A DNA stretch of 64,000 nucleotides from an uncultured Porphyromonas sp. Its GTDB lineage: Bacteria > Bacteroidota > Bacteroidia > Bacteroidales > Porphyromonadaceae. The notes below the pieces were generated by a model. The model saw only the letters and a program-made list of their open reading frames with translations. It did not search any database and was not told the DNA's origin. Of this stretch, positions 2,982-63,521 are shown piece after piece. The first letter of the stretch is position 1. Each line of letters opens with the position of its first letter. The translations under genes and the position numbers were made by a program. Where the stretch lies: NCBI RefSeq assembly GCF_900538385.1, contig NZ_UWSO01000004.1. The stretch is one strand, 5' to 3'.

Positions 2982-3773
2982 ATGGCTCAAACGCATATAT
3001 CTCCTCTCGCTCAGGTGCATCCTGAAGCACAGATAGGAGCTGAGGTGACGATCGGACCCTTTGTCACCATCGAGGCCAACACGGTCATCGGAGATCGTTG
3101 TGTCTTAGACCAAGGCTGCATGATACGCAGCGGAGCACGCATCGGTAGCGACTGTCACATACATCCCTACGCCGTCATCGCAGGGATCCCGCAAGACCTT
3201 AAGTTCAAAGGTGAGGAGACCACAGCCGTCATCGGTGACCACACAACCATCCGAGAGTACGCCACTGTCAATCGTGGTACCGCTTCGCGTGGCACTACAG
3301 TCATCGGCAGTAACTGTCTCATCATGGCTTACTCACACGTAGCGCATGACTGCATCCTCAAGGATCACATCATCCTAGGTAATGCGACCCAGCTCGCTGG
3401 GGAGGTCGAGATAGACGACTACGCCATCCTCAGTGGCGCTGTGCTGGTACATCAGTTCGTACGTATCTCACAGCACGTGATGATACAGGGAGGCTCTAAG
3501 GTGACCAAAGACATACCACCCTACTGTCTCGTGGGGCGCGATCCGATCGTTTACTGCGGCATCAACATCGTGGGACTACGTCGCAGAGGCTTCACCAATG
3601 AGCAGATCTTCCTCATAAACGATGTCTACCGCACACTTTACCAAGGGGGGCTCAACAACAGCGAGGCACTCGTAGAGATACAGAGTCGCTATCCGCAATG
3701 CTACGAGCGAGACCTCATCTACAACTTCATTAGCGACAGCAAGCGCGGCATCGTACGGGGATCTATGGATTAA
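2982..3773 (+). CDS. lpxA: acyl-ACP--UDP-N-acetylglucosamine O-acyltransferase
   Basis: 263 aa of hexapeptide-repeat protein beginning 'IHPLAQVHPEAQIGAEVTIGPFV', followed by the C-terminal helical domain. Confidence 0.9.
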   Translation: MAQTHISPLAQVHPEAQIGAEVTIGPFVTIEANTVIGDRCVLDQGCMIRSGARIGSDCHIHPYAVIAGIPQDLKFKGEETTAVIGDHTTIREYATVNRGTASRGTTVIGSNCLIMAYSHVAHDCILKDHIILGNATQLAGEVEIDDYAILSGAVLVHQFVRISQHVMIQGGSKVTKDIPPYCLVGRDPIVYCGINIVGLRRRGFTNEQIFLINDVYRTLYQGGLNNSEALVEIQSRYPQCYERDLIYNFISDSKRGIVRGSMD

Positions 3774-6786: not shown

Positions 6787-6980
6787 AATCTCCACCGAAG
6801 AAATCGCCAATTCTTCGGTGGAGATTTTTTATTTCCCACGGAGGAAAGAAAAAACTCTTCGGATATATCGTTTGATTCTTCCGAAGTTTCATTTGATTCT
6901 TCCGAAGAATTGTTTGATTCTTCCGAAGAAATAGAGCTTTTCCTCGGAGCTATTCGGAGGTTTCTTCCGAAGAAATCGAG
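6787..6980 (+). repeat. dispersed intergenic repeat, family A copy 1 (terminator-like hairpin plus a structured core with tandem 'tttgattcttccgaag' units)
   Basis: Hairpin 'atctccaccgaagaaatcgccaattcttcggtggagat' plus a T-run, then the core 'ggaggaaagaaaaaactcttcggatatatcgtttgattcttccgaagtttcatttgattcttccgaagaattgtttgattcttccgaag...gagctattcgg'. Close copies sit at 13775, 27671 and 53222. Confidence 0.75.
6788..6831 (+). terminator. rho-independent terminator (hairpin and T6) downstream of ORF 6112..6738; also the 5' module of the family A repeat
   Basis: The perfect inverted repeat atctccaccgaagaa / ttcttcggtggagat is followed by 'tttttt'. Confidence 0.5.
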
Positions 6981-13774: not shown

Positions 13775-13821
13775 ATATCTCCGTGGAAATTTCGAAATCT
13801 CCACGGAGATATTTTCGTTTT
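13775..13821 (+). terminator. rho-independent terminator after the U32 peptidase gene (the same hairpin as the repeat's 5' module)
   Basis: Inverted repeat atatctccgtgg...ccacggagatat followed by 'tttcgttttt'. Confidence 0.5.
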
Positions 13822-13965
13822 TCTCTGGAGGAAAGAAAAATTTCTTCGGACATATCATTCGATTCTTCCGAAGTTTCATTTGATACTTCCGAAGAATTTT
13901 TTCTTTCCTCCCGAAGGAATTCCGATTTTCTCGGGAGCTATTTGGGGAATTCCTCGGGAGGAACC
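13775..13965 (+). repeat. family A repeat copy 2 (hairpin and T-run then the conserved core)
   Basis: Hairpin 'atatctccgtggaaatttcgaaatctccacggagatat' plus a T-run, then 'ggaggaaagaaaaatttcttcggacatatcattcgattcttccgaagtttcatttgatacttccgaagaatt...gagctatttgg'. The ORF-track ORF 13783..14007 is an artefact of this repeat. Confidence 0.75.
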
Positions 13966-27670: not shown

Positions 27671-27860
27671 TCTCCACCGAGGAAATCCGAATTTCTTCGG
27701 TGGAGTTTTTTCCTTCCCCAGTGAAGAACGAAAAAATTCTTCGGACTTATCATTTCATTCTTCCGAAGTTTCATTTGATTCCTCCGAAGAATTTTTCATT
27801 TCTTCCGTGGAGAATTTTCATTTTCCAGCGAACTATTTGGTGTTTTCTTCGGACGCACTG
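27671..27860 (+). repeat. family A repeat copy 3
   Basis: Hairpin 'ctccaccgaggaaatccgaatttcttcggtggag' plus T6, then 'gaagaacgaaaaaattcttcggacttatcatttcattcttccgaagtttcatttgattcctccgaagaattttt...gaactatttgg'. No co-directional gene lies upstream, so the hairpin belongs to the element rather than serving as a gene's terminator. Confidence 0.75.
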
Positions 27861-27966
27861 ACGAGTAAGTCCACCGATATTGTTTCGAGCAGTTGACTTT
27901 ACAGCAGCTTTGTACGAGGCATTAATCTGCACATCAATGTTTTTTGTACTTTTGTACGAATCAATC

Positions 27967-29916
27967 ATGCAAAGCAAAAGTCCTATGACACAACGACTAC
28001 ACAGTTTACTACTTCTACTTACAGCGCTGCTACTAGGGCAGGCGATCTGTACCGCACAAGCCCCCGCTGAGACCGCTCAGATCGAGCTGATCGTACCTAA
28101 GGGTACGCAGTATGTCAACTTTGAGGTAACCTACCTTGAAGGTGCCGAGGCGAGCAGCATTGACTTTGGTGATGGCATCGTAGAGCCGTACAAGGGACGC
28201 GCTCAGCTTGTCACCCATAACTACGGCTCCGCGATAACGGAGGAGATGATCATCAAAATTGACGCCGCCAAGCTCACTCGTCTGCGTAATGCCTCGCAAG
28301 GGTCTCGCAATCTAGCTCCAGGCTTCTCAGGCTTTGGCAAAATTGCAGCTCCAGAGTTGGAGATGCTTCGTCTAGGTATCAACAACTACACGCTCCGAGA
28401 TAGTCGTGAGCAAATGGTAGACCTATCTGAGTGTCCTAAGCTCGAAGAGGTTTACCTACACAATGTGCCAGGAGTCAAGCTGCCTACAGAGCTCACGGCT
28501 CTGAAAAAAGTCGCTTTCTACAGTTCCGCTTCTAGCACAGATCGAAACTATGCGACTCTCTCTAACAAGCATCTAGACCTATCAGGCTACACAGCTTTAA
28601 AGGAGATCGATATACAGCGTCAGCCCAACCTAGAGACGGTCGACCTGACAGGTCTGACCGTCCTCACCAAGCTCACCATCAAGCAGTGCAATCTCTACAA
28701 GATCGACGGTATCAAGGATCTAGCAACGCTCACGGAGGTAGACCTCTCGCGCAATTACCTCCCCTACTCTTCGTTACCGCTCAAGCGTCCGGCGCTCACC
28801 AAGTTTGAATATGGGCAGGCTGGCATACGCCTAGCTCCTGAGTGCGTGGACAAGAACACGATCCACCTAGCCGATATGCTCGAGGTGAAAGATGCCGACG
28901 GTGTAGCACAGCCTACCACAATCAAGCAGGTTCGACAGCTCAACACGCCACGTACGCTCAAAGAGGGACAGGACTACATCCTCAAGGGGAGCGATCTCAT
29001 CATCCTCGAGCGTGGCTTCGGTGGCTTTGGCGGCGACAACCCGCTAGACGCTATCCAGCTAAGCATCAAGACCACCAATGTCTACTACCCCGACTACGGT
29101 AAGAGCAGGTATGAAGATCCTGAGCTCAAGCTATACATCGCTCGCGAGGGCGCCGTCTATCCTGGGGAGAAGCAGCTGCTCACCTTCTCTGCTGGTGAGG
29201 GTGGGTTTATCAAGGCTATGGCAGGCGACACTGAGCTCGCCACTGGAGCCGAGGTAGAGCCTGGCACACCGCTCACCTTCACCGCAACTCCTGCTGATGG
29301 CTATATGATCACCGAGTGGCGCGTCAATGACAAGGTCCAGATGACCCCAGGACTTGACAAGAAGCCGATTACGGATGCTACCTTTAAGGTCAATATGTAC
29401 AGTGAGCCGATGACGGTGACCGTCTCCTTTGCCAAGGCTGAGGACAATTATGCTGTCACCTTCTCCAAGGAGGGCGAGGGCAAGCTGACGGCCACGGTCG
29501 ATGGCAAGCCATTTACCTCAGGAACCTTCGTTGCCAAAGGTACGAAGGTGCTCTTCGAGGCAGAAGCCTTCATGGGCTACACTGTTGAGAAGTGGCTGGT
29601 CAATGATGAGGTCATCCCCGTTCATGAGCTGCAAGCAAGCTACACGCTGACTGTCGACAAGACATCGGATGTCAAGGTGTTCTTTGTAGTTTGTGACGCG
29701 ATCGATGCAGTCAGTGCCACACGCTATCAGATCGCTCAGACCGATCAGACGCTCACCGTACTGGGCACTGCGGCTAACGAGACAATCGGTCTCTACACGC
29801 TCACGGGCACTCCAGTCGCTGCGGCGACGGGAGACGCCACGCTCTCCATCGCACAGCTCCCCGCTGGCGTCTACCTCCTACAGATCGGCAACGACTGGGT
29901 CAAGGTAACGCTCTAA
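27967..29916 (+). CDS. leucine-rich-repeat surface protein with a T9SS C-terminal sorting domain
   Basis: Signal peptide 'LLLLLTALLLGQAICTAQA' from the ATG at 27967. It has LRR units and the C-terminus 'LPAGVYLLQIGNDWVKVTL'. It is a paralogue of 17081 and 46276. Confidence 0.75.
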   Translation: MQSKSPMTQRLHSLLLLLTALLLGQAICTAQAPAETAQIELIVPKGTQYVNFEVTYLEGAEASSIDFGDGIVEPYKGRAQLVTHNYGSAITEEMIIKIDAAKLTRLRNASQGSRNLAPGFSGFGKIAAPELEMLRLGINNYTLRDSREQMVDLSECPKLEEVYLHNVPGVKLPTELTALKKVAFYSSASSTDRNYATLSNKHLDLSGYTALKEIDIQRQPNLETVDLTGLTVLTKLTIKQCNLYKIDGIKDLATLTEVDLSRNYLPYSSLPLKRPALTKFEYGQAGIRLAPECVDKNTIHLADMLEVKDADGVAQPTTIKQVRQLNTPRTLKEGQDYILKGSDLIILERGFGGFGGDNPLDAIQLSIKTTNVYYPDYGKSRYEDPELKLYIAREGAVYPGEKQLLTFSAGEGGFIKAMAGDTELATGAEVEPGTPLTFTATPADGYMITEWRVNDKVQMTPGLDKKPITDATFKVNMYSEPMTVTVSFAKAEDNYAVTFSKEGEGKLTATVDGKPFTSGTFVAKGTKVLFEAEAFMGYTVEKWLVNDEVIPVHELQASYTLTVDKTSDVKVFFVVCDAIDAVSATRYQIAQTDQTLTVLGTAANETIGLYTLTGTPVAAATGDATLSIAQLPAGVYLLQIGNDWVKVTL

Positions 29917-29934
29917 CGTGTAACAACTTGACGT

Positions 29935-30073
29935 GTAACCCGCTGTAGGGACGCACGGTCTGTGCGTCCGTTGTATCAAAGGTTACAGCATCAAGATTGT
30001 TATCCGTTTTGGCTGGTTCGACAACGGACGCCATCCCACTAGACACGAGCCGAGAGTCCCTACAGCGGGTTAC
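29935..30073. repeat. family B palindromic MITE-like element copy 1
   Basis: Terminal inverted repeats gtaacccgctgtaggga / tccctacagcgggttac flank the internal palindromes gacgcacggtctgtgcgtc and tccgttg...caacgga. Copies lie at 52929, 55166 and 63311. Confidence 0.75.
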
Positions 30074-30107
30074 TCGTCTCATCAAGCCACACGGCTTCAT
30101 CTAGAAA

Positions 30108-30828: not shown

Positions 30829-30900
<72 letters not shown>

Positions 30901-37640: not shown

Positions 37641-37766
37641 TTCCATTTCCTCCGGAGGAATCGAAAAGTTCCTCCCTTGGAACTAAAAAGTTCCTCCCTT
37701 GGAACTCGAAAGTTCCTGCCTTGGAACTAAAAAGTTCCAAGAGGGGAACCATTTTTGGAACTCGTA
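37641..37766 (+). repeat. tandem array of ~20-nt hairpin units, family A-like variant
   Basis: The palindrome 'ttcctccggaggaa' is followed by 3.5 copies of 'aaaagttcctcccttggaact', each unit an agttcc/ggaact inverted repeat. Confidence 0.6.
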
Positions 37767-49890: not shown

Positions 49891-52821
49891 ATGCAGAACA
49901 AAGGATTTGTGATCCTCTTCGCCTCTCTACTGACGATCATCTGCGCTTTCTACATCTCCTTTACCCCAGTGGTAAGGCACTACGATCAGAAGGCGCTGGC
50001 GATGACCGCAGCTGGCGAGGATGGCAAAGCGTATCTCGACTCAATGGCCAACGAGAAGGTGTGGTTTGGCTACACGCTCAAGAAAGCCCGCAACCAGCAG
50101 ATAGGTCTCGGACTAGACCTCAAGGGCGGTATGAACGTCGTCCTCAAGGTCAATGGACGTGATCTCCTGCGCAACCTCTCAGGACATAACCAGTCGCCAG
50201 CCTTCATCGAGGCTATCGATAGGGCTGCCAAGGAAGGCGCCAATGACTTCGTCGGGACTTTCGTAAAGGCTTACAAAGAGCTCGAGCCCTCAGGCTCGCT
50301 CGCGGTAATCTTTAGCAATGGTCCCCTCCGTGATGTCATCTCGCCTAAGTCTAGCGACCAGGAGGTTATCAAGGTGCTTCAGGAGAAGTACAGCAGTGCT
50401 ATCGACGCTGCTATCAACGTCCTCAAGACTCGTATCGACCGCTTTGGTGTCGTCGCTCCAAACGTACAGCGCATCGAGGGCCAGGGACGTATCCTCGTCG
50501 AGCTACCAGGTGTCACCGAGCCTCAGCGTGTTCGTGAGCTACTGCAGCGCAGTGCTAACCTACAGTTCTGGCGCACCTACACCTATGATGAGATTGCTAG
50601 CGACCTCGTCGACGCTAATAATCGTCTCACCGCTATGGCAAACGGCAACGACCTGACGCCTGCCGATACGGCTACTACGGCAGCTGACTCGACCGCTACG
50701 GTGGCTGACTCTACAGCAGTACAGACGCCAGCTTCCACAGGTGTAGAGAATGTCCTCTTTAGCAAGCTCAACGTCACCAATCGTGGTACCATCGTCGGCT
50801 ACGCTCGTCGTGCAGATCTAGACAAGATCGATGAAATGCTCGAGGAGGCTCAGAAGCAAAAGATGATCCGTGAGGATCTGATGCTCCTCTGGAGCAACTC
50901 GCCTATCAAAGATCCACAGTCTGGCAAGGAGACAGACATCTACGAGCTTTACGCTATCCGTGGTAACCGCAATGCACTCCCCGATCTAGGTGGTGAGGTG
51001 GTCACCTCGGCACGTAGTGAGGTGCGCAACGACCTAGGTCAGAACCGTCCCGTCGTCACCATGACGATGAATGATGAGGGTGCTCGTAAGTGGGCTCGCC
51101 TGACCGGTGACAACATCGGTCGAAACATCGCTATCGTCCTCGATGGTGTCGTCTACTCAGCACCTAATGTCAATAACGAGATCACGGGCGGACGCTCTGA
51201 GATCTCGGGTCACTTCACCGTCGATGAGACGACCGACCTTGCTAACGTCCTCAACTCTGGACGTATGGAGGCTTCTGTCGAGATCGAGCAGGAGAGTGTC
51301 GTCGGACCAACGCTTGGTAGTGAGTCCATCAAGGCTGGTATCATCTCCTTTATCATTGCGATCATCCTGCTGATGATCTACATGTGCCTCGCTTACGGCC
51401 TCATCCCAGGTCTTATTGCCGATGGTGCTCTGATCCTCAACAGCTTCTTCACCCTCGGTGTCCTTGCCTCTTTCCACAGTGTCTTGACGCTGTCCGGTAT
51501 TGCGGGACTTGTGCTGACGCTCGGTATGGCGGTGGATGCTAACATTCTGATCTTCGAGCGTATCAAGGAAGAGCTACGTGCTGGCAAGTCTATGACGCGT
51601 GCTATACAAGACGGTTACGGCAATGCCTTCTCAGCAATCTTTGACTCCAACCTCACGACCGTCATCACGGGTGGTGTGCTCTATGCCTTTGGTACAGGTC
51701 CTATCCGTGGCTTCGCTACGACGCTCATCATCGGTGTCATCGCTTCCTTTATCACGGCAGTCTTCTTGACACGTATCGTCGTTGAGGCGCTTGATAAGAA
51801 GGGACGTATGGACAAGGTTACCTATACAACTTTCCTCACACGCAACCTGCTAAACAACCCCACCTACAAGATCCTGGAGAACCGCAACAAGGGCTTCATC
51901 ATCTTTGGCTCTATCCTCGTGCTCGGTCTCATTGGCTCGTTCGTATGGGGTCTCAATAGAGGTATCGAGTTCTCAGGCGGTCGCAACTATATCGTTGCCT
52001 TTGAGCAGCCTGTCTCTTCGGCTGAGGTACGTGAGGCTCTGACGAAGCCCCTAGAGGAGCATGTCCTCGTCACCTCTATCGGTACGGAGGGCAATCAGGT
52101 TCGTATCTCGACCAACTATGGTATCGGTATGACTCAGGAGAGCGAAGACGAGGAGCTACTCGTCATCGGTAAGGTCTTCGAGGGCGTACAGAAGTTCCTA
52201 CCACAGGGCACGACCCAGCAGCAGTTTGTCGACAACTATGTCGTCAGCTCACAGCGTGTCAGCCCAAGTATGTCTAAGGATATCTCTCGTCAGGCTATCA
52301 TAGCGGTGCTCCTCTCCCTGATCTTCATGGGACTGTACATCTTGCTTCGCTTCCGCAACTGGGCCTTCTCGCTAGGAGCTTTTGCCTCTGTGGCTACCAC
52401 CACGCTACTCATTGTGTCTAGCTACATACTGCTCTGGCAGATCATGCCCTTCACGATGGAGCTCGATCAAAACTTCATCGCAGCGCTGCTAGCGATCATC
52501 GGATACTCGATCAACGATGTGGTCGTCGTCTTCGACCGTGTCCGTGAGACGCTACACAACTATCCCAACCGTGAGGAGAAGCTTGTGATGAACGATGCGC
52601 TCAATAGCACGCTAGCTCGTACCGTACAGACGACCTTCTCGACCTTCCTAGTGGTCTTCATCATCTTCCTACTCGGTGGAGCCTCTATGCGTAGCTTTAC
52701 CTTTGCGCTACTCATCGGTATCGTTTACGGTATCTTCTGTACGCTCTTTGTCGCATCGCCTATTGCCTACCTAGTACGCAATAAGCAGCAACAGAGGAAG
52801 CTCGCAGCAGCTAAGAAGTAA
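49891..52821 (+). CDS. secDF: protein translocase subunit SecDF (fused)
   Basis: 976 aa with two 6-TM blocks, a periplasmic P1 domain, and the fusion arrangement typical of Bacteroidetes. Confidence 0.9.
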   Translation: MQNKGFVILFASLLTIICAFYISFTPVVRHYDQKALAMTAAGEDGKAYLDSMANEKVWFGYTLKKARNQQIGLGLDLKGGMNVVLKVNGRDLLRNLSGHNQSPAFIEAIDRAAKEGANDFVGTFVKAYKELEPSGSLAVIFSNGPLRDVISPKSSDQEVIKVLQEKYSSAIDAAINVLKTRIDRFGVVAPNVQRIEGQGRILVELPGVTEPQRVRELLQRSANLQFWRTYTYDEIASDLVDANNRLTAMANGNDLTPADTATTAADSTATVADSTAVQTPASTGVENVLFSKLNVTNRGTIVGYARRADLDKIDEMLEEAQKQKMIREDLMLLWSNSPIKDPQSGKETDIYELYAIRGNRNALPDLGGEVVTSARSEVRNDLGQNRPVVTMTMNDEGARKWARLTGDNIGRNIAIVLDGVVYSAPNVNNEITGGRSEISGHFTVDETTDLANVLNSGRMEASVEIEQESVVGPTLGSESIKAGIISFIIAIILLMIYMCLAYGLIPGLIADGALILNSFFTLGVLASFHSVLTLSGIAGLVLTLGMAVDANILIFERIKEELRAGKSMTRAIQDGYGNAFSAIFDSNLTTVITGGVLYAFGTGPIRGFATTLIIGVIASFITAVFLTRIVVEALDKKGRMDKVTYTTFLTRNLLNNPTYKILENRNKGFIIFGSILVLGLIGSFVWGLNRGIEFSGGRNYIVAFEQPVSSAEVREALTKPLEEHVLVTSIGTEGNQVRISTNYGIGMTQESEDEELLVIGKVFEGVQKFLPQGTTQQQFVDNYVVSSQRVSPSMSKDISRQAIIAVLLSLIFMGLYILLRFRNWAFSLGAFASVATTTLLIVSSYILLWQIMPFTMELDQNFIAALLAIIGYSINDVVVVFDRVRETLHNYPNREEKLVMNDALNSTLARTVQTTFSTFLVVFIIFLLGGASMRSFTFALLIGIVYGIFCTLFVASPIAYLVRNKQQQRKLAAAKK

Positions 52822-52856
52822 GCTTTCCCCTACTCGCTCTCCAGTTAGAGCGGTAG

Positions 52857-52908
52857 TAAAAAAATCGGAGCCTATCCACCATCGTGTGGGTAGGCTCCGA
52901 TTTTTTTA
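52857..52908. terminator. strong rho-independent terminator after secDF (A-tract, hairpin, T-tract; potentially bidirectional)
   Basis: 'gtaaaaaaatcggagcctatccacc atcgtg tgggtaggctccgatttttttac'. Confidence 0.7.
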
Positions 52909-52928
52909 CGCCGCCGACCGCACCGACC

Positions 52929-53150
52929 GTGAAACCCGCTGTGCGGACGCACGGGGCGTGTAAACCTCATCGACCAACCCACGTCGCCTTGTAGGGACGC
53001 TCGGTCTGAGCGTCCGTTGTATCAAAGCGAGACGTGTAACGATTTGTAGGGACGCTCGGTCTGAGCGTCCGTTGTGTCAAATGTTACAGCGTCATGGTTT
53101 TAACGGAAACGGACGCACAGACCGTGCGTCCCTACAGGAGTCGTTTCCGT
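52929..53150. repeat. family B palindromic element copy 2 (contains a tandem internal duplication)
   Basis: 'gtagggacgctcggtctgagcgtccgttgt' occurs twice in tandem. It closes with 'acggacgcacagaccgtgcgtccctacagg', the reverse complement of the family B TIR. Confidence 0.7.
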
Positions 53151-53221
53151 GGTTCCGCACACCAGACTACAGGTTTCACCACTCGTCGTCCCGACGACTT
53201 CCCGATTCCTCTGGAACTATT

Positions 53222-53410
53222 TTGGGATTTCTTCCGTGGATATTTTTTATTTCCCAGGGAGGAAAGGAAAAATTCTTCGGACTTATCGTTTGATTCTTCC
53301 GAAGTATCATTTGATTCTTCCGAGGAAATTTTTCTTGCCCTCGTGGAAAATCAAAAATATCCCCATGGAGAATCGAAAATATCCACCGAGGCATCCCGAA
53401 GACCCTCGTG
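53222..53410 (+). repeat. family A repeat copy 4
   Basis: 'gatttcttccgtggatattttttatttcccagggaggaaaggaaaaattcttcggacttatcgtttgattcttccgaagtatcatttgattcttccgagg...'. Artefactual ORFs 53072..53522 lie inside it. Confidence 0.75.
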
Positions 53411-53514
53411 CGTTACGGACTTGCTAGCTGTTGAGAGACTATGTGTAGAGGCTGTTTTTGATCAAAATTCCATCGGGCGAAATGTTAACGATCGATTTTG
53501 TCAAAAAGAAAACC

Positions 53515-53561
53515 GATTTTGACAAACGGGGGGGGGGGATTTTACATACCTTTGCATCAAA
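53515..53561 (+). promoter_or_regulatory. Bacteroidetes-type promoter (-33 TTTG, G11 spacer, -7 TACCTTTG) of the Mfa-like pilus operon
   Basis: 'cgaTTTGacaaacG11attttacaTACCTTTGcatc'. The -7 box is 46 nt upstream of the ATG at 53600. Confidence 0.45.
53528..53538. repeat. homopolymeric G11 tract inside the promoter spacer of the type V pilus operon
   Basis: 'caaac ggggggggggg attttacatacctttg'. It lies between a TTTG at 53518 and the -7 box at 53547. Confidence 0.9.
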
Positions 53562-53599
53562 GATTCAACAGCTTTATAAACAATCAAACCAATTCAACT

Positions 53600-55135
53600 A
53601 TGAAAAAGTTTCTTTATGCAACGTTGGCTCTCGCCGCAGTTCTGCTCTTCGCAAGCTGCAAGAACGACAAGAACCAACCCAATGATCAGGAGAAGGCTGA
53701 TGCTTTCATCTCCTTTACTTTCAACCTACCACAAGGTGGTACAAGAGCTGAGGCTGGCAATGTCGCTGGTGCAAACGCTGGCGATACTTTCGTTGGTACT
53801 GCTGATGAGCAGGCTATCAAGGAGGTCCGCGTCGTACTTTACGATCCAAATGAAGGCATAGTTAAGTACGCCCTTACTTACAACATCACAGCAACAGGTG
53901 GTCAGGCACCTACAGGAGATGGTCTTGCTGACGCCCCAGCTAGCGCAGCTACAGCAGCTAACTTTACCACAAAAGCTGAGCAGGTCGTAAGTCAAGACTA
54001 TCAGATGCTTGCTATCATCAATCCAACATCTGATGTCATCGCAGCTACCGCAGAGGGTAAGTACCTCAAGGATGCTCAGGCTGCTCTTGAGTCAACCGTC
54101 AAAGATCTATCTGCAGATGGTAAGGCTATCCTGATGTCTAACGATCGTGGCCTCGTTAAGGTTGCACCTGCTGATATGAAGGCTGCTGCAGCTGATGCCG
54201 AGGGTCATCCGATCAAGGTAAATGTAGATCGTATCCTCGCCAAGGTATACGTGGGTGGTACACCAGATCTTCCTGCTGGTGTTACATTCTCCGACACCAA
54301 GTGGGAGCTCAATACGACCAACAAGAAGACCTTTATCTATCGTCAGTTTGCCCAGGTTACGACTGGCTTAGATCAGTTTGCCCCTGAGACGGTAGATAAC
54401 AATACTGATCGCTTCGCTCGCTACGCTAAGGATCCTAACTACCTAGCTGGTGAATTTAACGAGGCAGACTTCAACTACAAGAAGGATGTCGACGTTCTCG
54501 CTAACGAGTGGGGCTTTGAAGACACTAAGGGTCAGTACTGCCTTGAGAACACGATGGATGCTGGTCAGCAGCTAAACAACCAGACTACTTCATTTATCCT
54601 GAGCGGTACCTGGAAGCCTGCAGACCATGACGGCATTTCCTTTACAAAGGGTCAGACTTGGTACAGCTATATGGGCTTTACCTTTACTGTGGCAAAGATG
54701 AAAGAGTACATCGGTATCGTAACTGATGCATCAAAAGCTGCCGAGAAAGAGATTGTTGGCACGCCAGCAGGCTTCAAGGCTGCTCTTAAGACTCTTGTAG
54801 AGGATGCTAACAGCCCAGTTGACAAGACTGAGGGAACCATCACTAAGTCTTTTGTCGCTCACAACTTCAAGGGCTATAAGGATGGTGTTTGCTACTACCA
54901 GACGAACTTAATCCGTCACTTCAACGATACTCAGTCTAGCAAGGATATGGGTTACGGTCGCTACGGTGTAGTTCGTAACAACATCTACAAGGTTACGATC
55001 AAGAAGATCTCACAACCAGGTGAGCCTACAATTGTTCCTGAAAAGCCTAATCCAGATGATCCAACGAAGCTATTCGTAGCCTTCGATATTACGATCAATC
55101 CTTGGATTGTTCGTACACAGGAGATTTCTCTATAA
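53600..55135 (+). CDS. type V pilus major subunit (Mfa1/FimA-family fimbrillin lipoprotein)
   Basis: Lipoprotein signal 'LLFASC'. 'ISFTFNLPQGGTR-AEAG' parallels the FimA/Mfa1 N-terminal strand and Arg maturation site. The C-terminus 'ITINPWIVRTQEISL' resembles the donor-strand region of type V pilins. 511 aa is Mfa1-like. Confidence 0.65.
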   Translation: MKKFLYATLALAAVLLFASCKNDKNQPNDQEKADAFISFTFNLPQGGTRAEAGNVAGANAGDTFVGTADEQAIKEVRVVLYDPNEGIVKYALTYNITATGGQAPTGDGLADAPASAATAANFTTKAEQVVSQDYQMLAIINPTSDVIAATAEGKYLKDAQAALESTVKDLSADGKAILMSNDRGLVKVAPADMKAAAADAEGHPIKVNVDRILAKVYVGGTPDLPAGVTFSDTKWELNTTNKKTFIYRQFAQVTTGLDQFAPETVDNNTDRFARYAKDPNYLAGEFNEADFNYKKDVDVLANEWGFEDTKGQYCLENTMDAGQQLNNQTTSFILSGTWKPADHDGISFTKGQTWYSYMGFTFTVAKMKEYIGIVTDASKAAEKEIVGTPAGFKAALKTLVEDANSPVDKTEGTITKSFVAHNFKGYKDGVCYYQTNLIRHFNDTQSSKDMGYGRYGVVRNNIYKVTIKKISQPGEPTIVPEKPNPDDPTKLFVAFDITINPWIVRTQEISL

Positions 55136-55165
55136 TCCCTGAGTACACTTTGCTTGTCGATTAGC

Positions 55166-55333
55166 GAGACGTGTAACCCGCTGTAGGGACGTACGAGACG
55201 TGTAACGATTTGTAGGGACGCTCGGTCTGAGCGTCCGTTGCATCAAAGGTTACAGCGTCAAGGATTTAACGAGAACGGACGCACAGACCGTGCGTCCCTA
55301 CAAAGGGTTACACGTTTGAGCGGGTTACACGTC
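55166..55333. repeat. family B palindromic element copy 3
   Basis: The outer TIR gacgtgtaacccgct / agcgggttacacgtc is perfect. The internal 'gtagggacgctcggtctgagcgtccgttg' and 'acggacgcacagaccgtgcgtccctaca' match the family. Confidence 0.75.
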
Positions 55334-55414
55334 ATCGACAGCAATACTATCCTATGAGGGGTTGAATGTTCCCCTCATAGGAACTATTCACACAAAAGAG
55401 GTCTAAGACTCACG

Positions 55415-56416
55415 TTGACTATGGTACCACATACGCTATCTCGATCGAGACTATTATATATAGGAGTCATGCTCCTGCTGAGCTGGAGCTTCGTCTCTTG
55501 TGACAAGTGCATCTATGAGGATCTGTCCACCTGCCCGCTCCGTGTGCAGCTACGCTACGACTACAATATGCAGTACGTAGATCGCTGGCATCGCGAGGCA
55601 GAGGATGTGCATCTCTACATCTTCGACAAGACAGGGCACCTGGTCTCGGAGATGACTGATGCGGCTGCACCCTATGCTGAGGGGCAGACCTTCGAGCTAC
55701 AGCTCGCCCCGGGCGACTACTCCATCGTAGCGCTCTGCGGCCACCGTATGGGTACCCTCTATCAGGAGAGCAAGCTACAGGTCGGCACCTCGACCATGCA
55801 GGATCTGCTCATACAACTCTCGAGAGCTGAGGACAAGCGGATCGCCGCTGAGCTGCCACCACTACTCTATGGTATCTCCAAGGAGGTCCAGGTGCTGGGC
55901 GATGGCAGCCGGCTCATCGTCGTGCCGATGGCTAAGTGGACCAACAGTATACGCCTCGTCATGCAGGATCTCTCTGAGGGTGGCAAGTCTAACATTAAGG
56001 TCGACAACTACGACTTTAAGATTACCGCTCCCAACGGTCGCTACAACGGCGCTGGCGAAGTACTCACCGACGACGTACTCACCTACACCCCGTACTATGC
56101 TGAGCAGGTCAAGGGGTCGGGCGGTATCGCTGTCGAGCTCAACACCCTCCGCCTACTGACCAACCAGGATCAGCGACTTATCATCACCGAGCGCGCTACG
56201 GGCGATGAGCTCCTCAACATAGATCTGCTGTCGCTACTGCTGCAGACGAAGTTCTACGCGAACAACAAGCTCTCCGATCAGGAGTACCTCGACCGTGAGG
56301 ATCACTACGCCGTCATCTTCGCTTTCGATGGTCGCCCCGTGACGCGAGAGACTTTCCTAGCGGTGAACGTATGGATCAATGGCTGGCTCATCCGTGAGCA
56401 AGACCATAATATATAA
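55415..56416 (+). CDS. type V pilus anchor-like subunit (Mfa2/FimB-family lipoprotein)
   Basis: 333 aa with lipoprotein signal 'LLSWSFVSC' and a pilin-like C-terminal strand 'VNVWINGWLIREQ'. Its position is second in the operon. Confidence 0.55.
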   Translation: MTMVPHTLSRSRLLYIGVMLLLSWSFVSCDKCIYEDLSTCPLRVQLRYDYNMQYVDRWHREAEDVHLYIFDKTGHLVSEMTDAAAPYAEGQTFELQLAPGDYSIVALCGHRMGTLYQESKLQVGTSTMQDLLIQLSRAEDKRIAAELPPLLYGISKEVQVLGDGSRLIVVPMAKWTNSIRLVMQDLSEGGKSNIKVDNYDFKITAPNGRYNGAGEVLTDDVLTYTPYYAEQVKGSGGIAVELNTLRLLTNQDQRLIITERATGDELLNIDLLSLLLQTKFYANNKLSDQEYLDREDHYAVIFAFDGRPVTRETFLAVNVWINGWLIREQDHNI

Positions 56417-57817: not shown

Positions 57818-60800
57818 ATGAAACGATATAGATACATCACCCTCTCCCTCCTTCTCCTCCTTCTGTCGATCTCTGCGCTCTCCGCGCAGAAGACATCCCA
57901 ACAAGGCTCAGATAAGGATGGGAACTTCCATTTTGAAGTGACGACGACCCCCTCTTATTGTCAGAATGAGGGTACGATGGAGGTTAAGCTACTTACACCA
58001 TTTTGGGGAGCTCCGCTAGCTCTCTCTCAGATAGAGAGGGTGGAGTACGAGGTCAAGGATGGGGAAGGTCATAGTTACACTCAGGGTTACAAGCCAGCGC
58101 CAGCTCCTACAGAGGCACTTCTGATCGAGCAACTACCAGGGCGCGAGGACTACAGTATCTCTATTAGACTGATAGCTAAAGAAGGAATAGGCAAGTCTGA
58201 CGTTGAGACCTTCCTCCGCTGGAATGCAAAGGTTGAGAACAAGTATGTAGCGCTGGAGGTGACCCAGGAGAAGTTTGATGCCTATAGGTTGCCTTGTAGA
58301 CCGTACGGTAGCTTTCATATCGTAGCGCGAGGGGGTACGGAGAGACCTCCCGTCTTGAATATTAAGACCCCCAGTGCTCTTACGGCTAAGAAGATGCAAC
58401 CCACTAAGCGGGAGGTCAAGGGTGACACAACCCTCTACCACTTTGAGTATAGCGGGGCACTACCACAAGGCACTTACGAATATACTTTAGAGAGTGACTG
58501 TCGAGAGACTACTGCCAAGTCGTTCACCGTATATGGTCCTACGACCAATCTGCCTACGGTGCCATCGGATCTCAAGATCCCCTTCGGCATCGACATCATG
58601 AGTGGTGAGGGTTGCGCTAGTAGCATCAGTGCGTTTGGAGCCAGCTTCGATAAGGATAAGCCAGAGCTACGTGAGCTCTTTAAGGAGATCAATAAGGGCT
58701 ACCAAGGAGATGCGGAGAGACTTTTTCCTGAGTATGCAGACTCTTTCCCCTCTACCTTTATCAAAAACTACGAGGTAGCTGTCGTCACTCAGCAAGAGTA
58801 TGCAAAGCTCCAGCAGGGTACGCTAGACGCCAGCACGCTCCTCTGGAGTAGTCAAACGGGATCTCTCACGAAGGTCGACGCCAATGACTCGGAGAGTGGT
58901 GGTGTCAGCATCTCTTATAGACTGCCTCAGTCGATGTCTCTACAAGAGCTTCGTACGCAGCAGGCACTCCCAGCTGCCGTGCTGATACGTGTCAAGAGAC
59001 CCAACGAAGGGTGCAACGACTATATCACCATACCCATTACTGTGGACTTGGACTTTCACAAGAATCGCTTTGAGATCCTTGAGACAGAAGACGCCTCTGA
59101 CTGCTCCATAGGTCAGATTATATGGTTCCAAGGGTGGAACTTCTGTACGCTACGCTTTAAGTACTACGAGCTACCAGACGGTTCTGACAAGCCCGACCCA
59201 TCGGCTACGCCTATCCACACTTCAGATGATTTTGGTCCAGCAGTCTCTACTTCGATAGACAAGCGATACACTTTTGAGGGATATGACCCGACGAAGCGCT
59301 ACTACGTCGAGATAGAGGGCACGGATCTCTATGGCAATCCCATCATACCCAAGCCTAGCCTCATCCTAGCCCCCACAAACAAAAAGCCTATAAAGAATCG
59401 TCTCTACGACTTCTCTAGCATCTACGCCCACCTGCCTCAGCCGATGCTGGATAGAATAAAGCTTGGTAGTCTTACCGCTTATTTAAGTCCAGGTTATCAC
59501 ACTTATCTTTTTTCCTTTTACGGGAAGTCTCTCAATGCTATGGCTGGCATGGAAATCACGCTTGTCGAGGCTCCCGAAGGGTATGAAGAGTATCGCCGTA
59601 CGTGTGAGAGCTACTACTTCAATACGCCCAATCCTACGGATGCTGAAAATCCTTATGGTGGTGGTATGATAGGGCTGGGAGAGAAGATCAAAATGTCCAA
59701 CACCTTTACAGGTCCTGGGGGGACTGGCACCCCTGAATACTTTTTCCCATTTAGGTTTATCTATAAGGTAGGCAAAAACGGAGAGCGCATAGTCTATCCT
59801 TACAAAGACAACTATTCTAAACCCTCTCCGCTTAAAGACATTCTTACTAAGGATCCAGAGAAGGATGCTTATTTGGAGAAGCATCCTATGCCTCGTGGCA
59901 TCTACCGTCTCAAGTTTGAGCATCCTTGTCAGCCGGGAGAGTCCTTCTATATAGATCTAGATATGAGTGAGCCAGACTTCAAGCCCGAGCTTACGGAACT
60001 CATTAAGCCGGTGGTGGATCGAACCTCTTGTGATGAGGTGCGTGTCTACCCCTTTGCTGATGGTCGCCTAGACTATGCTATAAATAAGGAGGGTAAGCCT
60101 CGCAATATTATCTTTTATGTTACGCTTGCTGGAGGTCAAAAGAAGTGGCTCTACTTTTACCCCAAGGATCGTGATGGCAATCCGATAGATCATACTAAGT
60201 TCTATATTCCTGTCAAAAGTGTAGATCTCCCGCTCACACTGAATCTTCGCTACGTCTATCCAAAGCCTCGCTGGCAGTGGATAAAGTGGGATAAGCCGAC
60301 GTCTACTTCAGTCAACCCCATTGGGGTCAATCAGTTTGTCAAGGGAGAGCTGGAGGGAGGAAATGTAGGTGATGGATATTACAAATTACCTCTTGATGGG
60401 TACAATCCAAACAATGACCAAGACGATTGGGGTGAGGATGGCTTTTCGTGGTCTTCTTGGTCTGCAGAGTCGTTTGTCCCTTGGATTTCAGTTGATGTGC
60501 CTATAGATACAAAAGATCTGCCCCCCTCGTACGCACGTCCTACTTACGTAGGGTATCGCTGCTCCAAGGAGATGGGCTATATGGAGTTTAAGCTGATCAA
60601 TATCCCGAACAAGGTCGGTACCGTGGTACTCAAAGATGGAGATAAGGTCATCATGAGCTCAAAGATTGAGGAGTTGCCCGAAGACCTGATGGTTCGCTGG
60701 GATCTTACTGCCGAGTTGGGTAGTGAACTCAAGAATGAGTACAGGCTGGAGATTATAACCAGTCTATGTGGTGAAGCAAATATGCAGACGGAGAAGTTTA

Positions 60801-63180: not shown

Positions 63181-63300
63181 ATTAGAAGTTAGAGGTTAGT
63201 GGTCAGAGGCACTGGTACTCCTAGGAGTGCTGGTGCCTCTGCTGGTGTTAGAGCTATCGGAGGTAATCAGAGGTATCGGAGGTAATCAGAGCTATCGGAA
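63181..63300. repeat. family C tag-rich low-complexity and tandem repeats with an imperfect long hairpin
   Basis: 'agaaattagaagttagaggttagtggtcagaggcactggtactcctaggagtgctggtgcctctg' forms a hairpin. It is followed by 2.5 tandem copies of 'tatcggaggtaatcagagg'. Confidence 0.45.
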
Positions 63301-63310
63301 CGAATCGGAG

Positions 63311-63470
63311 CGAGACGTGTAACTATCACGTCGCCCTGTAGGGACGCACGGTCTGTGCGTCCGTTGTCGAACAACGAAACGTGCAGCCGATCGTTCTGAC
63401 AGCTTGATGCCGTAACCTTTAACGGGGACGGACGCAATCCCACTAGACACCAGCCGTGCGTCCCTACAAG
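63311..63470. repeat. family B palindromic element copy 4
   Basis: 'ctgtagggacgcacggtctgtgcgtccgttg...gacgcaatcccactagacaccagccgtgcgtccctacaagg'. It shares the internal 'atcccactagacac' with copy 1. Confidence 0.75.
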
Positions 63471-63521
63471 GAGTCGTCAGCTCCGATCGCCTCCGACTCA
63501 CCACGATGAGTGTTCGGTCTG

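Follow-up and report, generated by a model that had tools for sequence, protein, structure and literature searches.

Four intergenic clusters of palindromic repeats

The window analyzed here is the whole 64-kb stretch (64,000 nucleotides) of one contig from an uncultured Porphyromonas sp. It contains four clusters of short palindromic repeats at about the positions where the preliminary description had placed four copies of a MITE-like element, and, as stated there, all of them are intergenic, with none inside a credible ORF. The clusters are composed of REP units, whose anatomy is described below, and of inverted doublets of these units (REPINs). Two stem types of the unit, A..T and T..A, are distinguished by a variable base pair.

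Cluster 1 (29930..30078) is a single REPIN located between the stop codon of a gene for an LRR/T9SS-type surface protein (27880-29916) and a tRNA (30829-30900), with a DNA fold of -43.3 kcal/mol (z -7.9). Its left arm is an A..T unit on the plus strand (29945..29969), which reads GTAG followed by GGACGCAC-GGTCT-GTGCGTCC. Its right arm, on the minus strand, is a degenerate long-loop REP variant (30026..30063) that is 90% identical to 63428-63468. The left arm is preceded by a lineage-specific 5' extension on the plus strand, GACGTGTAACCCGC (29930..29943), termed an outer TIR in the preliminary description, whose inverted partner GCGGGTTACTCGTC lies at 30065-30078. This outer inverted motif, GACGTGTAACCCGC/GCGGGTTAC(A/T)CGTC, had been reported in two copies and is indeed found in copy 1, with one mismatch, and in copy 3 (55168-55181 / 55320-55333). 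The GACGTGTAACCCGC extension is not conserved over all 283 REPs collected, and thus lies outside the universal unit.

Cluster 2 (52926..53144) consists of a half-unit, a single REP and a REPIN, and lies upstream of the fimbrillin gene and downstream of SecDF (49891-52821) and of a terminator-like hairpin (52856-52909), which has a T-run and is separate from the cluster. The degenerate half REP TGTGCGGACGCACGG (52937..52953) and a T..A unit (52991..53015) are on the plus strand. In the REPIN (53028-53144; fold -34.6 kcal/mol, z -8.4) the left arm is a plus-strand T..A unit (53046..53070) and the right arm a minus-strand A..T unit (53111..53135). The internal tandem duplication noted earlier for this copy was confirmed and measures 55 nt (52989-53027 and 53044-53082). 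A contig from another sample (L001) matches the window identically until 53144 and then diverges; this break of synteny, like one in L118, may coincide with a REPIN or may be an artefact of assembly.

Cluster 3 (55168..55333; -63.1 kcal/mol, z -13) occupies the spacer from the fimbrillin gene (53498-55135) to the Mfa2-type anchor gene (55468-56416), and comprises a half-unit, a REPIN and two inverted outer motifs. The plus-strand half REP GTAGGGACGTACG (55183..55195) is truncated at the loop and joined to a new GACGTGTAAC module, a junction that recurs in four other loci (L131, L139, L147, L152) and hints at insertion into REP loops. The REPIN (55194-55302) has a T..A left arm on the plus strand (55212..55236) and an A..T right arm on the minus strand (55277..55301). 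The fimbrillin gene is bracketed by two REPINs, at 53028-53136 and 55194-55302, that are 94% identical.

Cluster 4 (63314..63477; -38.1 kcal/mol, z -7.0) is one REPIN with a 67-nt spacer, lying 3' of the gene for a 1783-aa fimbrial-operon protein (57818-63169) and of a hairpin at 63204-63241; downstream of the cluster, an LptD_2 gene begins at ~63611 and extends past the right end of the window. A plus-strand A..T unit (63338..63362) is paired with a minus-strand long-loop variant (63430..63467) reading GTAGGGACGCAC-GGCTGGTGTCTAGTGGGATT-GCGTCC on that strand.

Several points of the preliminary description have to be amended in the light of this inventory. The right arms of copies 1 and 4, said to carry the quoted TIR sequence, are in fact diverged long-loop REP variants (30026-30063, 63430-63467). 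The position mostly downstream of surface-protein genes needs correction for copy 2, which follows SecDF, not a surface protein, and lies behind the terminator hairpin of SecDF. The claim of very stable hairpins was borne out, as whole-cluster DNA folds of -43 (cluster 1) and -63 kcal/mol (cluster 3) far exceed those of shuffled sequences. A Pfam scan of the credible non-overlapping long ORFs of the window revealed no transposase of any kind, in agreement with the elements being non-autonomous. An Rfam 15 scan of the whole window returned, at the gathering score, two tRNAs only, with no RNA family match at the REPs.

The repeat unit is a REP

The 28-nt core GTAGGGACGC[A/T]CGGTCTG[T/A]GCGTCCGTT occurs seven times in the window versus zero expected, the expectation being the 0 matches obtained in 100 dinucleotide-preserving shuffles of the window. 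The core GTAGGGACGCNCGGTCTGNGCGTCCGTT is matched at 29945+, 52991+, 53046+, 53108-, 55212+, 55274- and 63338+. Besides these seven cores the window has two long-loop variants and two half-units, and together they make up the four intergenic clusters. A 9-mer, GTAGGGACG, at 63006-63014 within the 1783-aa ORF has no hairpin and was discarded as a chance match.

The basic unit is about 28 nt long, T-GTAG-GGACGCNC-(4-5 nt loop)-GNGCGTCC-GT, with GGACGCNC/GNGCGTCC as its stem and GGTCT as the loop in the window core, so that the sequence formerly regarded as a TIR is the palindrome itself. In computed folds a single unit forms an 8-bp stem and a 5-nt loop with an unpaired GTAG at the foot (DNA fold about -10 kcal/mol, z -4.8 to -5.1). 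It thus fits the description of a REP as a short (20-40 nt), GC-rich, imperfect palindrome able to fold into a hairpin. The tetranucleotide GT[AG]G, expected 0-2 nt 5' of the hairpin foot of a REP, is present as GTAG at the foot in essentially all units, a constancy that is partly built in by a scan pattern requiring GTAG. Conservation is bounded by T-GTAG...GT; information content falls to about zero further 5', and the loop is variable.

Among 283 units from 113 loci, one stem pair, both positions of which had been left free in the search pattern, is A..T in 181, T..A in 94 and mixed in only 8. Compensatory change is therefore seen at this one variable pair, and the remaining pairs are invariant and hence uninformative. 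The unit is a REP, an 8-bp GC-rich hairpin that carries the tetranucleotide GTAG at its foot, and not a terminal inverted repeat.

The arrangement of the units was examined in the same set. Among 146 adjacent pairs, 87 are convergent (+-), 31 are --, 15 are ++ and 13 are -+. Convergent doublets thus dominate, with spacers in the range of 30-70 nt and preferred lengths of 30-34, 40-44 and 65-69 nt; extra whole or half units are sometimes added, and the window shows four doublets. This layout of inverted doublets with a short spacer is that of REPINs or BIMEs. REP units also occur singly, as direct pairs and as tandem arrays. The shared ~30-bp palindromic TIR of the preliminary description is consequently real as a palindrome, but it is an independent REP unit, found also by itself, in direct orientation and in arrays. 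A preference for arms of different stem type, as for Y/Z in E. coli BIMEs, was considered and rejected: the REPIN arm pairings (A/T 44, A/A 35, T/T 15) are those of random pairing at the observed unit frequencies.

Distribution among genomes and strains

The REP core was found at 104 or more loci in species-representative genomes, which upholds the earlier expectation of a multi-copy, dispersed repeat, and each of six genomes carries at least 20-35 units on 10-15 contigs, counting fetched pieces only. The repeats are thus extragenic, dispersed and present in many copies, the window units all being intergenic and the copy counts coming from other genomes. The exact core is present in isolates of Porphyromonas uenonis, Phocaeicola and Segatella. 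It is nearly invariant over at least three Bacteroidales families, represented by Porphyromonadaceae, Bacteroidaceae and Prevotellaceae isolates, and is also found in Muribaculaceae MAGs. Carriage of the REP between genera by phages was considered and set aside, as only two viral contigs hold the REP. Several contigs begin or end at REPs, which break metagenome assemblies of gut Porphyromonas. Our literature search returned no specific report of this REP sequence, or of REP or RAYT in Porphyromonas, Bacteroides or Prevotella. The REP family is of a known kind, and it has not previously been described for the gut Porphyromonas group.

Strain variation was observed in the spacer orthologous to the site of cluster 3. 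Among 25 metagenome loci with the fimbrillin-mfa2 spacer, the REP is absent from 7, and the remaining 18 display at least 10 architectures differing by whole REP modules, even where Mfa2 is 98-99% identical. Whole REP modules have thus been gained, lost and reshuffled from strain to strain. No clean insertion event was recovered from these loci: empty and filled alleles differ also in about 40 nt of flank, so that neither an exact insertion point nor a target motif can be read, and the polymorphism could be explained by recombination as well as by transposition. The region behind SecDF was likewise compared, in search of an empty site, with the genome of the closest species (L075, 92% identity), where synteny is different.

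A candidate RAYT gene within arrays of the REP

No gene for a RAYT, the REP-associated tyrosine transposase also named TnpA_REP, came up when the window was searched with tblastn and phmmer, or in the 10 kb past its right end. Five related Porphyromonas-type genomes or contigs encode a RAYT-type HUH/Y1 protein of 165-185 aa inside arrays of the exact REP. The representative from uncultured Porphyromonas UMGS107 (L026:4537-5061) is 174 aa long and has the motifs NHIH, WQ and YIENNV; its homologues in four further contig sets (L108, L109, L110-115, L119) are 79-97% identical and lie inside the same REP arrays. A physical association of the exact REP and a RAYT-type gene is thus seen in each of these five genomes or contigs. 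Both parts are also present in P. uenonis, a cultured relative that has the REP (L011, L015) as well as RAYT homologues. No sample was common to the RAYT contigs and the window's species among the accessions compared.

The REPs around the gene show a recurrent orientation. Upstream of the gene, the closest REP is a minus-strand unit in four of the five contexts. Its position is -102 to -179 in three contexts; in L109 it overlaps the annotated ORF start, and in L119 it is about 200 nt away. The nearest downstream REP is on the plus strand in four of five (+69 to +172), and the first full downstream REP of L026 is on the minus strand at +161. The same REPs also flank a homologue of 57% identity (L120), with one at the stop codon and another in frame within the gene. 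Such in-frame REPs recur among the homologues: 25 of 120 homologues encode RTHxPCVPT, the translation of CGGACGCACGGnCCGTGCGTCCCTACA, and another 26 contain in-frame copies of a different REP type, while none was found in the Porphyromonas clade of homologues. The GTAG hairpins that flank more distant homologues (L123, L126), or lie inside them, are different ones, so that REP and protein co-vary.

On its sequence, the RAYT candidate is a divergent relative and no equivalog of the curated (proteobacterial) model. The sole NCBIfam match of the L026 protein is NF047646, REP-associated tyrosine transposase (E 1.3e-14), at 54.3 bits against a cut-off of 80, and the match to Pfam Y1_Tnp scores 19.9 bits against a cut-off of 23, both thus below the curated thresholds. 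A profile of 30 homologues has a single sequence match in the PDB, E. coli TnpA_REP (4ER8, E 3.8e-5), and the alignment pairs the HUH, WQ and Tyr motifs. The residues N87-H88-x-H90, W135-Q136, Y156 and N160 are invariant in all 30 homologues, in the order of an HUH motif followed by a single catalytic-type Tyr. An AlphaFold2 model (pLDDT 81, pTM 0.75) predicts a Y1 HUH fold, for which the top 30 Foldseek matches in the PDB are all ISDra2, IS608, IS200 or TnpA_REP, 4ER8 included.

Taken together, the four elements of the window are very probably REP/REPIN clusters, non-autonomous and most likely generated and moved in trans by a RAYT encoded elsewhere. Such a Y1 HUH tyrosine transposase would be supplied from another place in the genome, would bind REP hairpins folded in single-stranded DNA, such as that of a replication fork, and would read the 5' GTAG. 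Cleavage and rejoining would proceed via a 5'-phosphotyrosine intermediate, with neither terminal inverted repeats nor a target-site duplication. RAYTs are described as working on single-stranded hairpins and leaving no target-site duplication (PMC6006769). By inference, a RAYT gene would be present in the genome of the window itself, and this RAYT would be the agent moving the REPs. The repeats may also affect neighboring genes, by forming a hairpin at a 3' mRNA end between fimbrillin and mfa2, or through recombination between the 94%-identical REPINs around the fimbrillin gene. Counting against this explanation are the lack of a RAYT in the window and the next 10 kb, the scores of the candidate below the curated cut-offs, its YIENNV motif, and the failure to recover a clean insertion; in addition, Bertels et al. 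report only a modest abundance of flanking repeats for Group 4 (PMC5581495), the group to which the candidate would belong.

Alternative explanations

The window copies could instead be solo ends or remnants of an autonomous IS200/IS605-type element, in which a Y1 gene moves with its subterminal hairpins. The predicted IS200/IS608/ISDra2 fold of the protein and its weak Pfam Y1_Tnp match would agree with this, and the ends of such elements are likewise short hairpins with a 5' guide tetranucleotide (PMC6006769). We nevertheless consider this very unlikely, as the REP-associated tyrosine transposase is the family that the protein matches best, and TnpA_REP is its sole sequence match in the PDB. 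The gene is embedded in multi-unit REP arrays and not between one left-end and one right-end hairpin, and units far outnumber genes: in UMGS107 the RAYT gene is found in 1 of 11 fetched loci that together hold 35 units, and there is one RAYT locus among the 104 REP loci listed. Both the GTAG foot and the REP copies inserted in frame belong to the traits of RAYT subclass 2.4. The species-level contexts fetched have different genes around the RAYT, which, taken alone, would fit either a mobile IS or a rearranged RAYT neighborhood.

A second alternative is that the hairpins are maintained by host selection, as mRNA 3'-end stabilizers or attenuators, terminators, or sites for nucleoid or topology proteins, and are spread by recombination and selection. 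The near-invariance of the core over at least three Bacteroidales families, the compensatory change that keeps the stem, and the 3' or intercistronic position of units, e.g., from the major fimbrillin to mfa2, are what one would expect in that case, and E. coli REPs do have such secondary roles (PMC6006769). It is nonetheless highly improbable as the main explanation. Read on the plus (gene) strand, the units are followed by GTTG and not by the T-run of a Rho-independent terminator; a loose consensus terminator scan passes two minus-strand units only, opposite to the flanking genes; and cluster 2 lies behind a separate terminator-like hairpin that does have a T-run. Among 25 related strains that have the fimbrillin-mfa2 spacer, 7 dispense with the REP copy, the architecture there is not conserved, and the tight RAYT linkage and the in-frame REP copies would be left unexplained. 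Host use is compatible with RAYT-driven REPs as a form of exaptation; the terminator or mRNA-stabilizer role named as plausible in the preliminary description may exist.

That the elements are TIR-type MITEs, i.e., deletion derivatives of a DDE IS whose transposase binds ~30-bp double-stranded TIRs and makes target-site duplications, is barely credible and already largely refuted: although doublets of 110-220 bp with inverted ends resemble such elements and a transposase is missing from the window, the supposed TIR proves to be a hairpin tagged with GTAG, has a compensatory stem pair and is not confined to element ends, no direct repeats flank the four copies or appear on comparison of the filled and the empty orthologous site, and neither the window nor >150 fetched loci yielded a parent IS with matching TIRs, the sole associated gene being a Y1 HUH transposase. 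The preliminary description was thus partly right, in that the elements are non-autonomous, multi-copy and hairpin-forming, and wrong about the TIR-MITE mechanism; the target-site duplications and the matching IS that it had proposed to look for were not borne out.

Relation to known REP systems and significance

The closest well-known counterpart is the REP/BIME system of E. coli with TnpA_REP (RayT/YafM; 4ER8; "REPtron"). It shares the short, GC-rich, extragenic hairpin with a 5' GTAG guide, the inverted doublets and larger mosaics, the several REP subtypes per genome, and a Y1 HUH gene flanked by its own REPs, whose product matches the candidate in sequence and fold. The REP sequence is unrelated and the phylum different, the proteins are ~19% identical, and the E. 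coli motifs are DHLH and YIHYNP where NHIH and YIENNV are found here, which places it in another subclass (PMC6006769). In P. fluorescens the replicative unit is likewise a REP doublet forming a long hairpin, and the REPINs are non-autonomous, intergenic and linked to a REPIN-flanked RAYT (Bertels and Rainey 2011, PMC3116915), but the RAYTs there are of Groups 2/3. Pseudomonas REPs are described as species- or lineage-specific (PMC3116915), whereas the same 25-nt core is seen here in several Bacteroidales families.

TnpA_REP subclass 2.4 (Quentin et al. 2018, PMC6006769), which is RAYT Group 4 of Bertels et al. 2017, is found in Cyanobacteria, Bacteroidetes and others (PMC6006769). The candidate and its homologues resemble it in the NH[IFV]H, WQ and YIxNN- Tyr motifs and a length of ~165-200 aa, in canonical GT[AG]G REPs lying at most 1 kb from the gene, in "double-foot" REPs (here L039, L126), and in the in-frame REP copies between the HUH and Tyr motifs. 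The candidate differs in the last residue of the Tyr motif (YIENNV here versus YIxNNP), and the nearest Porphyromonas clade has no in-frame insertion. Membership in subclass 2.4 is putative, judged by motifs and shared traits, and PMC6006769 contains no description of Porphyromonas or of this REP sequence. In the literature searched, earlier REP surveys assigned GTAG-type REPs mainly to Proteobacteria and Cyanobacteria, and only CGTC-type repeats to Bacteroidetes (PMC3733652).

IS200/IS605 elements (IS608, ISDra2) share with the candidate the predicted fold and the logic of a subterminal hairpin with a guide tetranucleotide, and they transpose as single strands without target-site duplication; their hairpins form both ends of an autonomous IS present in multiple copies, whereas those described here are dispersed without the gene and arrayed around it. 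Bacterial MITEs, e.g., Correia elements, are small, non-coding, intergenic, multi-copy, hairpin-forming and non-autonomous, as are the REP clusters, but their TIRs are recognized in double-stranded form by DDE transposases with target-site duplications, and the TIR ends and the duplications are both missing at the REPs of the window. We know of no RAYT of subclass 2.4 that has been biochemically tested, and of no experimental model for the subclass.

A broader reading, which we offer tentatively and regard as rather unlikely, is that a frozen 25-nt core (GTAGGGACGCNCGG-N-CNGNGCGTCC) has been kept by one REP-RAYT lineage across at least three families while the transposase diverged to ~50-60% identity, and that REPIN clusters bracketing fimbrial genes act as breakpoints at which fimbrillin cassettes and neighboring surface-protein genes are exchanged between gut Porphyromonas strains. 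If true, the frozen core would contrast with the species-specific REPs of Proteobacteria, and would point to an unusually strong co-constraint between REP and RAYT or to a recent spread between families.

The label of a novel MITE thus gives way to a testable one with a different mechanism, that of a REP/REPIN population probably served by a RAYT. RefSeq names the P. uenonis RAYT homologues, such as WP_027451382.1, only "transposase", an annotation that can therefore be improved. Beside fimbrial and surface-protein genes, the REPs provide strain-variable markers, and cultured P. uenonis, with its simple and well-conserved REP, would be a usable test system for a RAYT of this kind.

REP clusters in the window

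The window derives from a gut bacterium resembling Porphyromonas, has a GC content of about 53% and carries T9SS/LRR surface-protein genes together with an Mfa-type fimbrial operon; contigs identical to it were found in human gut metagenomes. Four palindromic clusters, at 29930-30078, 52926-53144, 55168-55333 (in the fimbrillin-mfa2 spacer) and 63314-63477, share a 28-nt core, GTAGGGACGC[A/T]CGGTCTG[T/A]GCGTCCGTT, which has seven matches on both strands of the window and none in 100 dinucleotide-preserving shuffles. Much of the preliminary description was borne out: all four copies are real, the repeat core is itself palindromic, copies 1 and 3 have an outer inverted motif (GACGTGTAACCCGC) on either side, copy 2 contains an internal tandem duplication (55 nt long), every copy lies outside credible ORFs, and the ORFs of the window include no transposase. 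The right arm quoted for copies 1 and 4 was wrong, being a diverged long-loop variant, and truncated half-units are additionally present in copies 2 and 3. Copy 2 comes after SecDF and the terminator-like hairpin of SecDF, and not after a surface-protein gene. Folding energies as single-stranded DNA are -43 to -63 kcal/mol for the clusters (z from -7.9 to -13) and about -10 kcal/mol for one REP unit alone (z about -5). The fimbrillin gene (53498-55135) lies between two 109-nt REPINs (inverted REP doublets; 53028-53136 and 55194-55302) that are 94% identical and directly oriented.

Several further features adjoin the clusters. An additional copy of the outer motif (AACGTGTAAC, 29914-29924), just before cluster 1, contains the stop codon of an LRR/T9SS surface-protein gene (27880-29916). 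A 142-aa ORF on the plus strand (53094-53522), which public metagenome annotations list as a gene (L002, L116), starts inside cluster 2 and crosses a copy of the family-A repeat; it has no Pfam match and is probably a spurious call. Family A is a second, unrelated repeat of about 140 nt with inverted TTCTTCGGA/TCCGAAGAA motifs and 66% mean column identity, present at 6789-6925, 13776-13912 (inverted), 27671-27807 and 53207-53343; each copy precedes a gene for a secreted or surface protein (serpin, Big_2, LRR/T9SS and fimbrillin) by 70-400 nt. In several related contigs (window 63250-63310; L001 13255-13320; L075 3700-3740), short tandem repeats with 9-19-nt units (e.g., AGAGCTATCGGAGGTAATCAG x3) lie immediately next to REPIN clusters or the ends of genes.

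Anatomy of the repeated unit

The unit was characterized from 283 REP units at 113 loci, taken from the window, genome contigs and metagenome contigs, and both positions of its covarying stem pair were left free in every search. It consists of GTAG abutting the foot of a GC-rich stem of 8 bp (GGACGCNC/GNGCGTCC), whose loop is 4-5 nt long. Across the 283 units the conserved limits are T-GTAG...GT, with nothing kept beyond on either side, and the loop is variable. The sole variable stem pair covaries, with A..T in 181 units, T..A in 94 and the two mixed combinations together in 8. The outer GACGTGTAAC motif is not kept across taxa and is a lineage-specific extension. Adjacent units are convergent, with GTAG outermost, in 87 of 146 pairs, at preferred spacers of 30-34, 40-44 and 65-69 nt; units also occur singly, in direct pairs and in arrays of up to nine. 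This unit and its doublet layout are the anatomy of REPs and REPINs, as in the BIMEs of E. coli (summarized in PMC6006769).

The clusters had been proposed to be MITEs bounded by terminal inverted repeats (TIRs), a reading that the anatomy does not fit, because the repeated unit is a self-contained REP module and not an element end. TIR-only ends, target-site duplications (direct repeats are absent beside all four copies) and a parent IS (in the window and in more than 150 fetched loci) were each sought and not found, and the TIR-type MITE was rejected. No Rfam family matched the REP elements. The suggested terminator role is not supported by the hairpins, which have no T-run on the sense strand; two terminator-like calls at REP hairpins are both on the opposite strand, and cluster 2 sits behind a separate terminator-like hairpin with a T-run. 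Placed between the genes for the major fimbrillin and the anchor, cluster 3 might act as a 3'-end stabilizer or an attenuator, but it is dispensable in a quarter of related strains.

A RAYT-type gene among REP arrays

No Y1 transposase was found in the window or in the 10 kb to its right. The exact core occurs in at least 104 loci among the matches listed in a scan of one genome per species, and one of them, L026 of the uncultured Porphyromonas UMGS107, holds a 174-aa ORF between REP arrays. The encoded protein has the motifs NHIH, WQ and YIENNV. Its only NCBIfam match is "REP-associated tyrosine transposase" (RAYT; E = 1.3e-14), at 54 bits below the equivalog cut-off of 80, and its Pfam Y1_Tnp match is below threshold. 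A profile of 30 homologues gave a single PDB sequence match, 4ER8 (E = 3.8e-5), which is E. coli TnpA_REP in complex with a REP hairpin, and the HUH, WQ and Tyr motifs align. The 30 best PDB matches of the AlphaFold2 model (pLDDT 81) are all Y1 HUH transposases (ISDra2, IS608, IS200, 4ER8).

Four further contig sets (L108, L109, L110-115 and L119) carry RAYT homologues with 79-97% identity, all within arrays of the same REP. On the upstream side, four of the five contexts have a minus-strand REP nearest to the gene; the distance is -102 to -179 in three, L109 has the REP overlapping the start of the annotated ORF, and in L119 it is about 200 nt away. On the downstream side, a plus-strand REP is nearest (+69 to +172) in four of five, the exception being L026, where the first full downstream REP (+161) is on the minus strand. 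Where the minus-upstream, plus-downstream layout holds, the GTAG feet point toward the RAYT gene from both sides. Where RAYT homologues are annotated with N-terminal extensions, these often include the translated upstream REP (VGTHGxCVR). In the window, four tandem copies of a 22-nt repeat, TTCCTCCCTTGGAACTAAAAAG, precede a BspA-type LRR gene (37647-37734), and a 90% match to it adjoins the RAYT REP cluster of L026 (3992-4142).

REPs are also found inside the genes. A 57%-identical homologue in L120 has this same REP at its stop codon and another (3395-3419) lying in frame between the HUH and Tyr motifs, and P0015, P0024, P0031, P0036, P0043 and other homologues likewise carry their own REP in frame as a peptide. 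Among the 120 best homologues, 25 encode RTHxPCVPT, the translation of CGGACGCACGGnCCGTGCGTCCCTACA, and in a further 26 the peptide is DAPGCIPT, translated from a different GTAG hairpin, GGATGCACC...GGTGCATCCCTAC, which adjoins a gene of the DAPGCIPT type in L123; the still more distant homologue in L126 has a "double-foot" REP downstream. Protein and hairpin therefore change together. REP units are far more numerous than the gene: among the matches listed, one RAYT locus stands against 104 REP loci, and the RAYT-bearing genome has 35 REP units in 11 fetched loci, such per-genome copy numbers being lower bounds. The cultured relative P. uenonis has both REPs, including the long-loop variant (L011, L015), and RAYT homologues, which RefSeq names just "transposase."

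The best-supported explanation is that the window elements are REPs and REPINs which a RAYT, encoded at another site in the genome, generates and moves in trans. The expected mechanism follows that of E. coli TnpA_REP and the IS200/IS605 transposases (PMC6006769): the RAYT would bind the folded REP hairpin in single-stranded DNA, with GTAG at the hairpin foot serving as a guide, and would cut and rejoin through a phosphotyrosine link without target-site duplication. The window's own genome presumably encodes such an enzyme, which would move the REP units of the window. Five gut-metagenome homologues (P0016-P0019 and P0025; 76-79% identity) are just 121 aa long, covering 70% of the full protein, and one of the five is found on 31 contigs, which reach 108 kb in length. 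Truncated or mis-started genes may account for these short homologues, and the copy of the window species could be among them.

Turnover of the fimbrillin-mfa2 spacer

Among 27 fetched metagenome loci with an Mfa2-type protein 82-99% identical, 25 hold the orthologous fimbrillin-mfa2 spacer (L129-L154; window 55136-55467); L137, cut just upstream of a conserved hairpin, and L155, in which the start of the gene is absent, were left out. Seven of the 25 spacers have no REP. The 18 filled spacers show at least 10 architectures, even where Mfa2 is 98-99% identical to that of the window. Whole modules distinguish these architectures, namely an additional outer motif or half REP, a long-loop arm in place of a short-loop one, or different spacers. 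On its right the variable segment is bounded by the conserved hairpin CCTATGAGGGG...CCCCTCATAGG (window 55351-55381). A recurrent junction, present at window 55183-55195 and in L131, L139, L142, L147 and L152, links a half REP truncated at its loop (GTAGGGACG[C/T]ACG) to a new GACGTGTAAC-REP module; judged from these junctions, insertion into REP loops, breakage there or hairpin-mediated deletion may have occurred.

The proposed comparison of empty and filled sites found both alleles, but the exact insertion point is not readable because about 40 nt of flank also differs. The spacer polymorphism could therefore stem from recombination as an alternative to transposition. The metagenome contig L001 matches the window exactly as far as the right end of cluster 2 (53144) and differs past that point, and L118 diverges inside the family-A copy at 53207-53343. 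Metagenome contigs often end, start or change synteny near the fimbrillin REPINs (L003 at 53116 and many Mfa2 loci), which may reflect real rearrangement or recombination at the repeats, or assembly breaks.

Relationship to known systems and spread in Bacteroidales

The Porphyromonas REP system appears to work like the E. coli REP/BIME-TnpA_REP "REPtron" and the REPIN-RAYT systems of Pseudomonas. Across the candidate RAYT and its homologues, the traits in common with TnpA_REP subclass 2.4 are NH[IFV]H, WQ and YIxNN- motifs, GT[AG]G REPs of the canonical kind, REPs with a double foot, and REPs inserted in frame between HUH and Tyr. Judged by motifs and shared traits rather than by a tree, and with scores below the curated family thresholds, the candidate RAYT seems closest to this subclass. 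A 2013 survey of tagged palindromes (PMC3733652) reported repeats of the GTAG type in Proteobacteria, Cyanobacteria, Chloroflexi and the PVC group, but for Bacteroidetes it lists CGTC repeats only; our literature search found no paper with the REP core sequence or on REPs in Porphyromonas.

REPs are usually described as species-specific (PMC6006769). Isolates from three families (P. uenonis; Phocaeicola barnesiae and P. coprophilus; Segatella maculosa) have the same 25-nt core with different spacers, and the core is also present in MAGs of Muribaculaceae, Coprobacter and Alloprevotella; only two viral contigs with the core were found. This distribution could be explained by long co-conservation with the RAYT or by transfer between families. 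The least ordinary aspect of the system is that one 25-nt REP core is common to several families of Bacteroidales.
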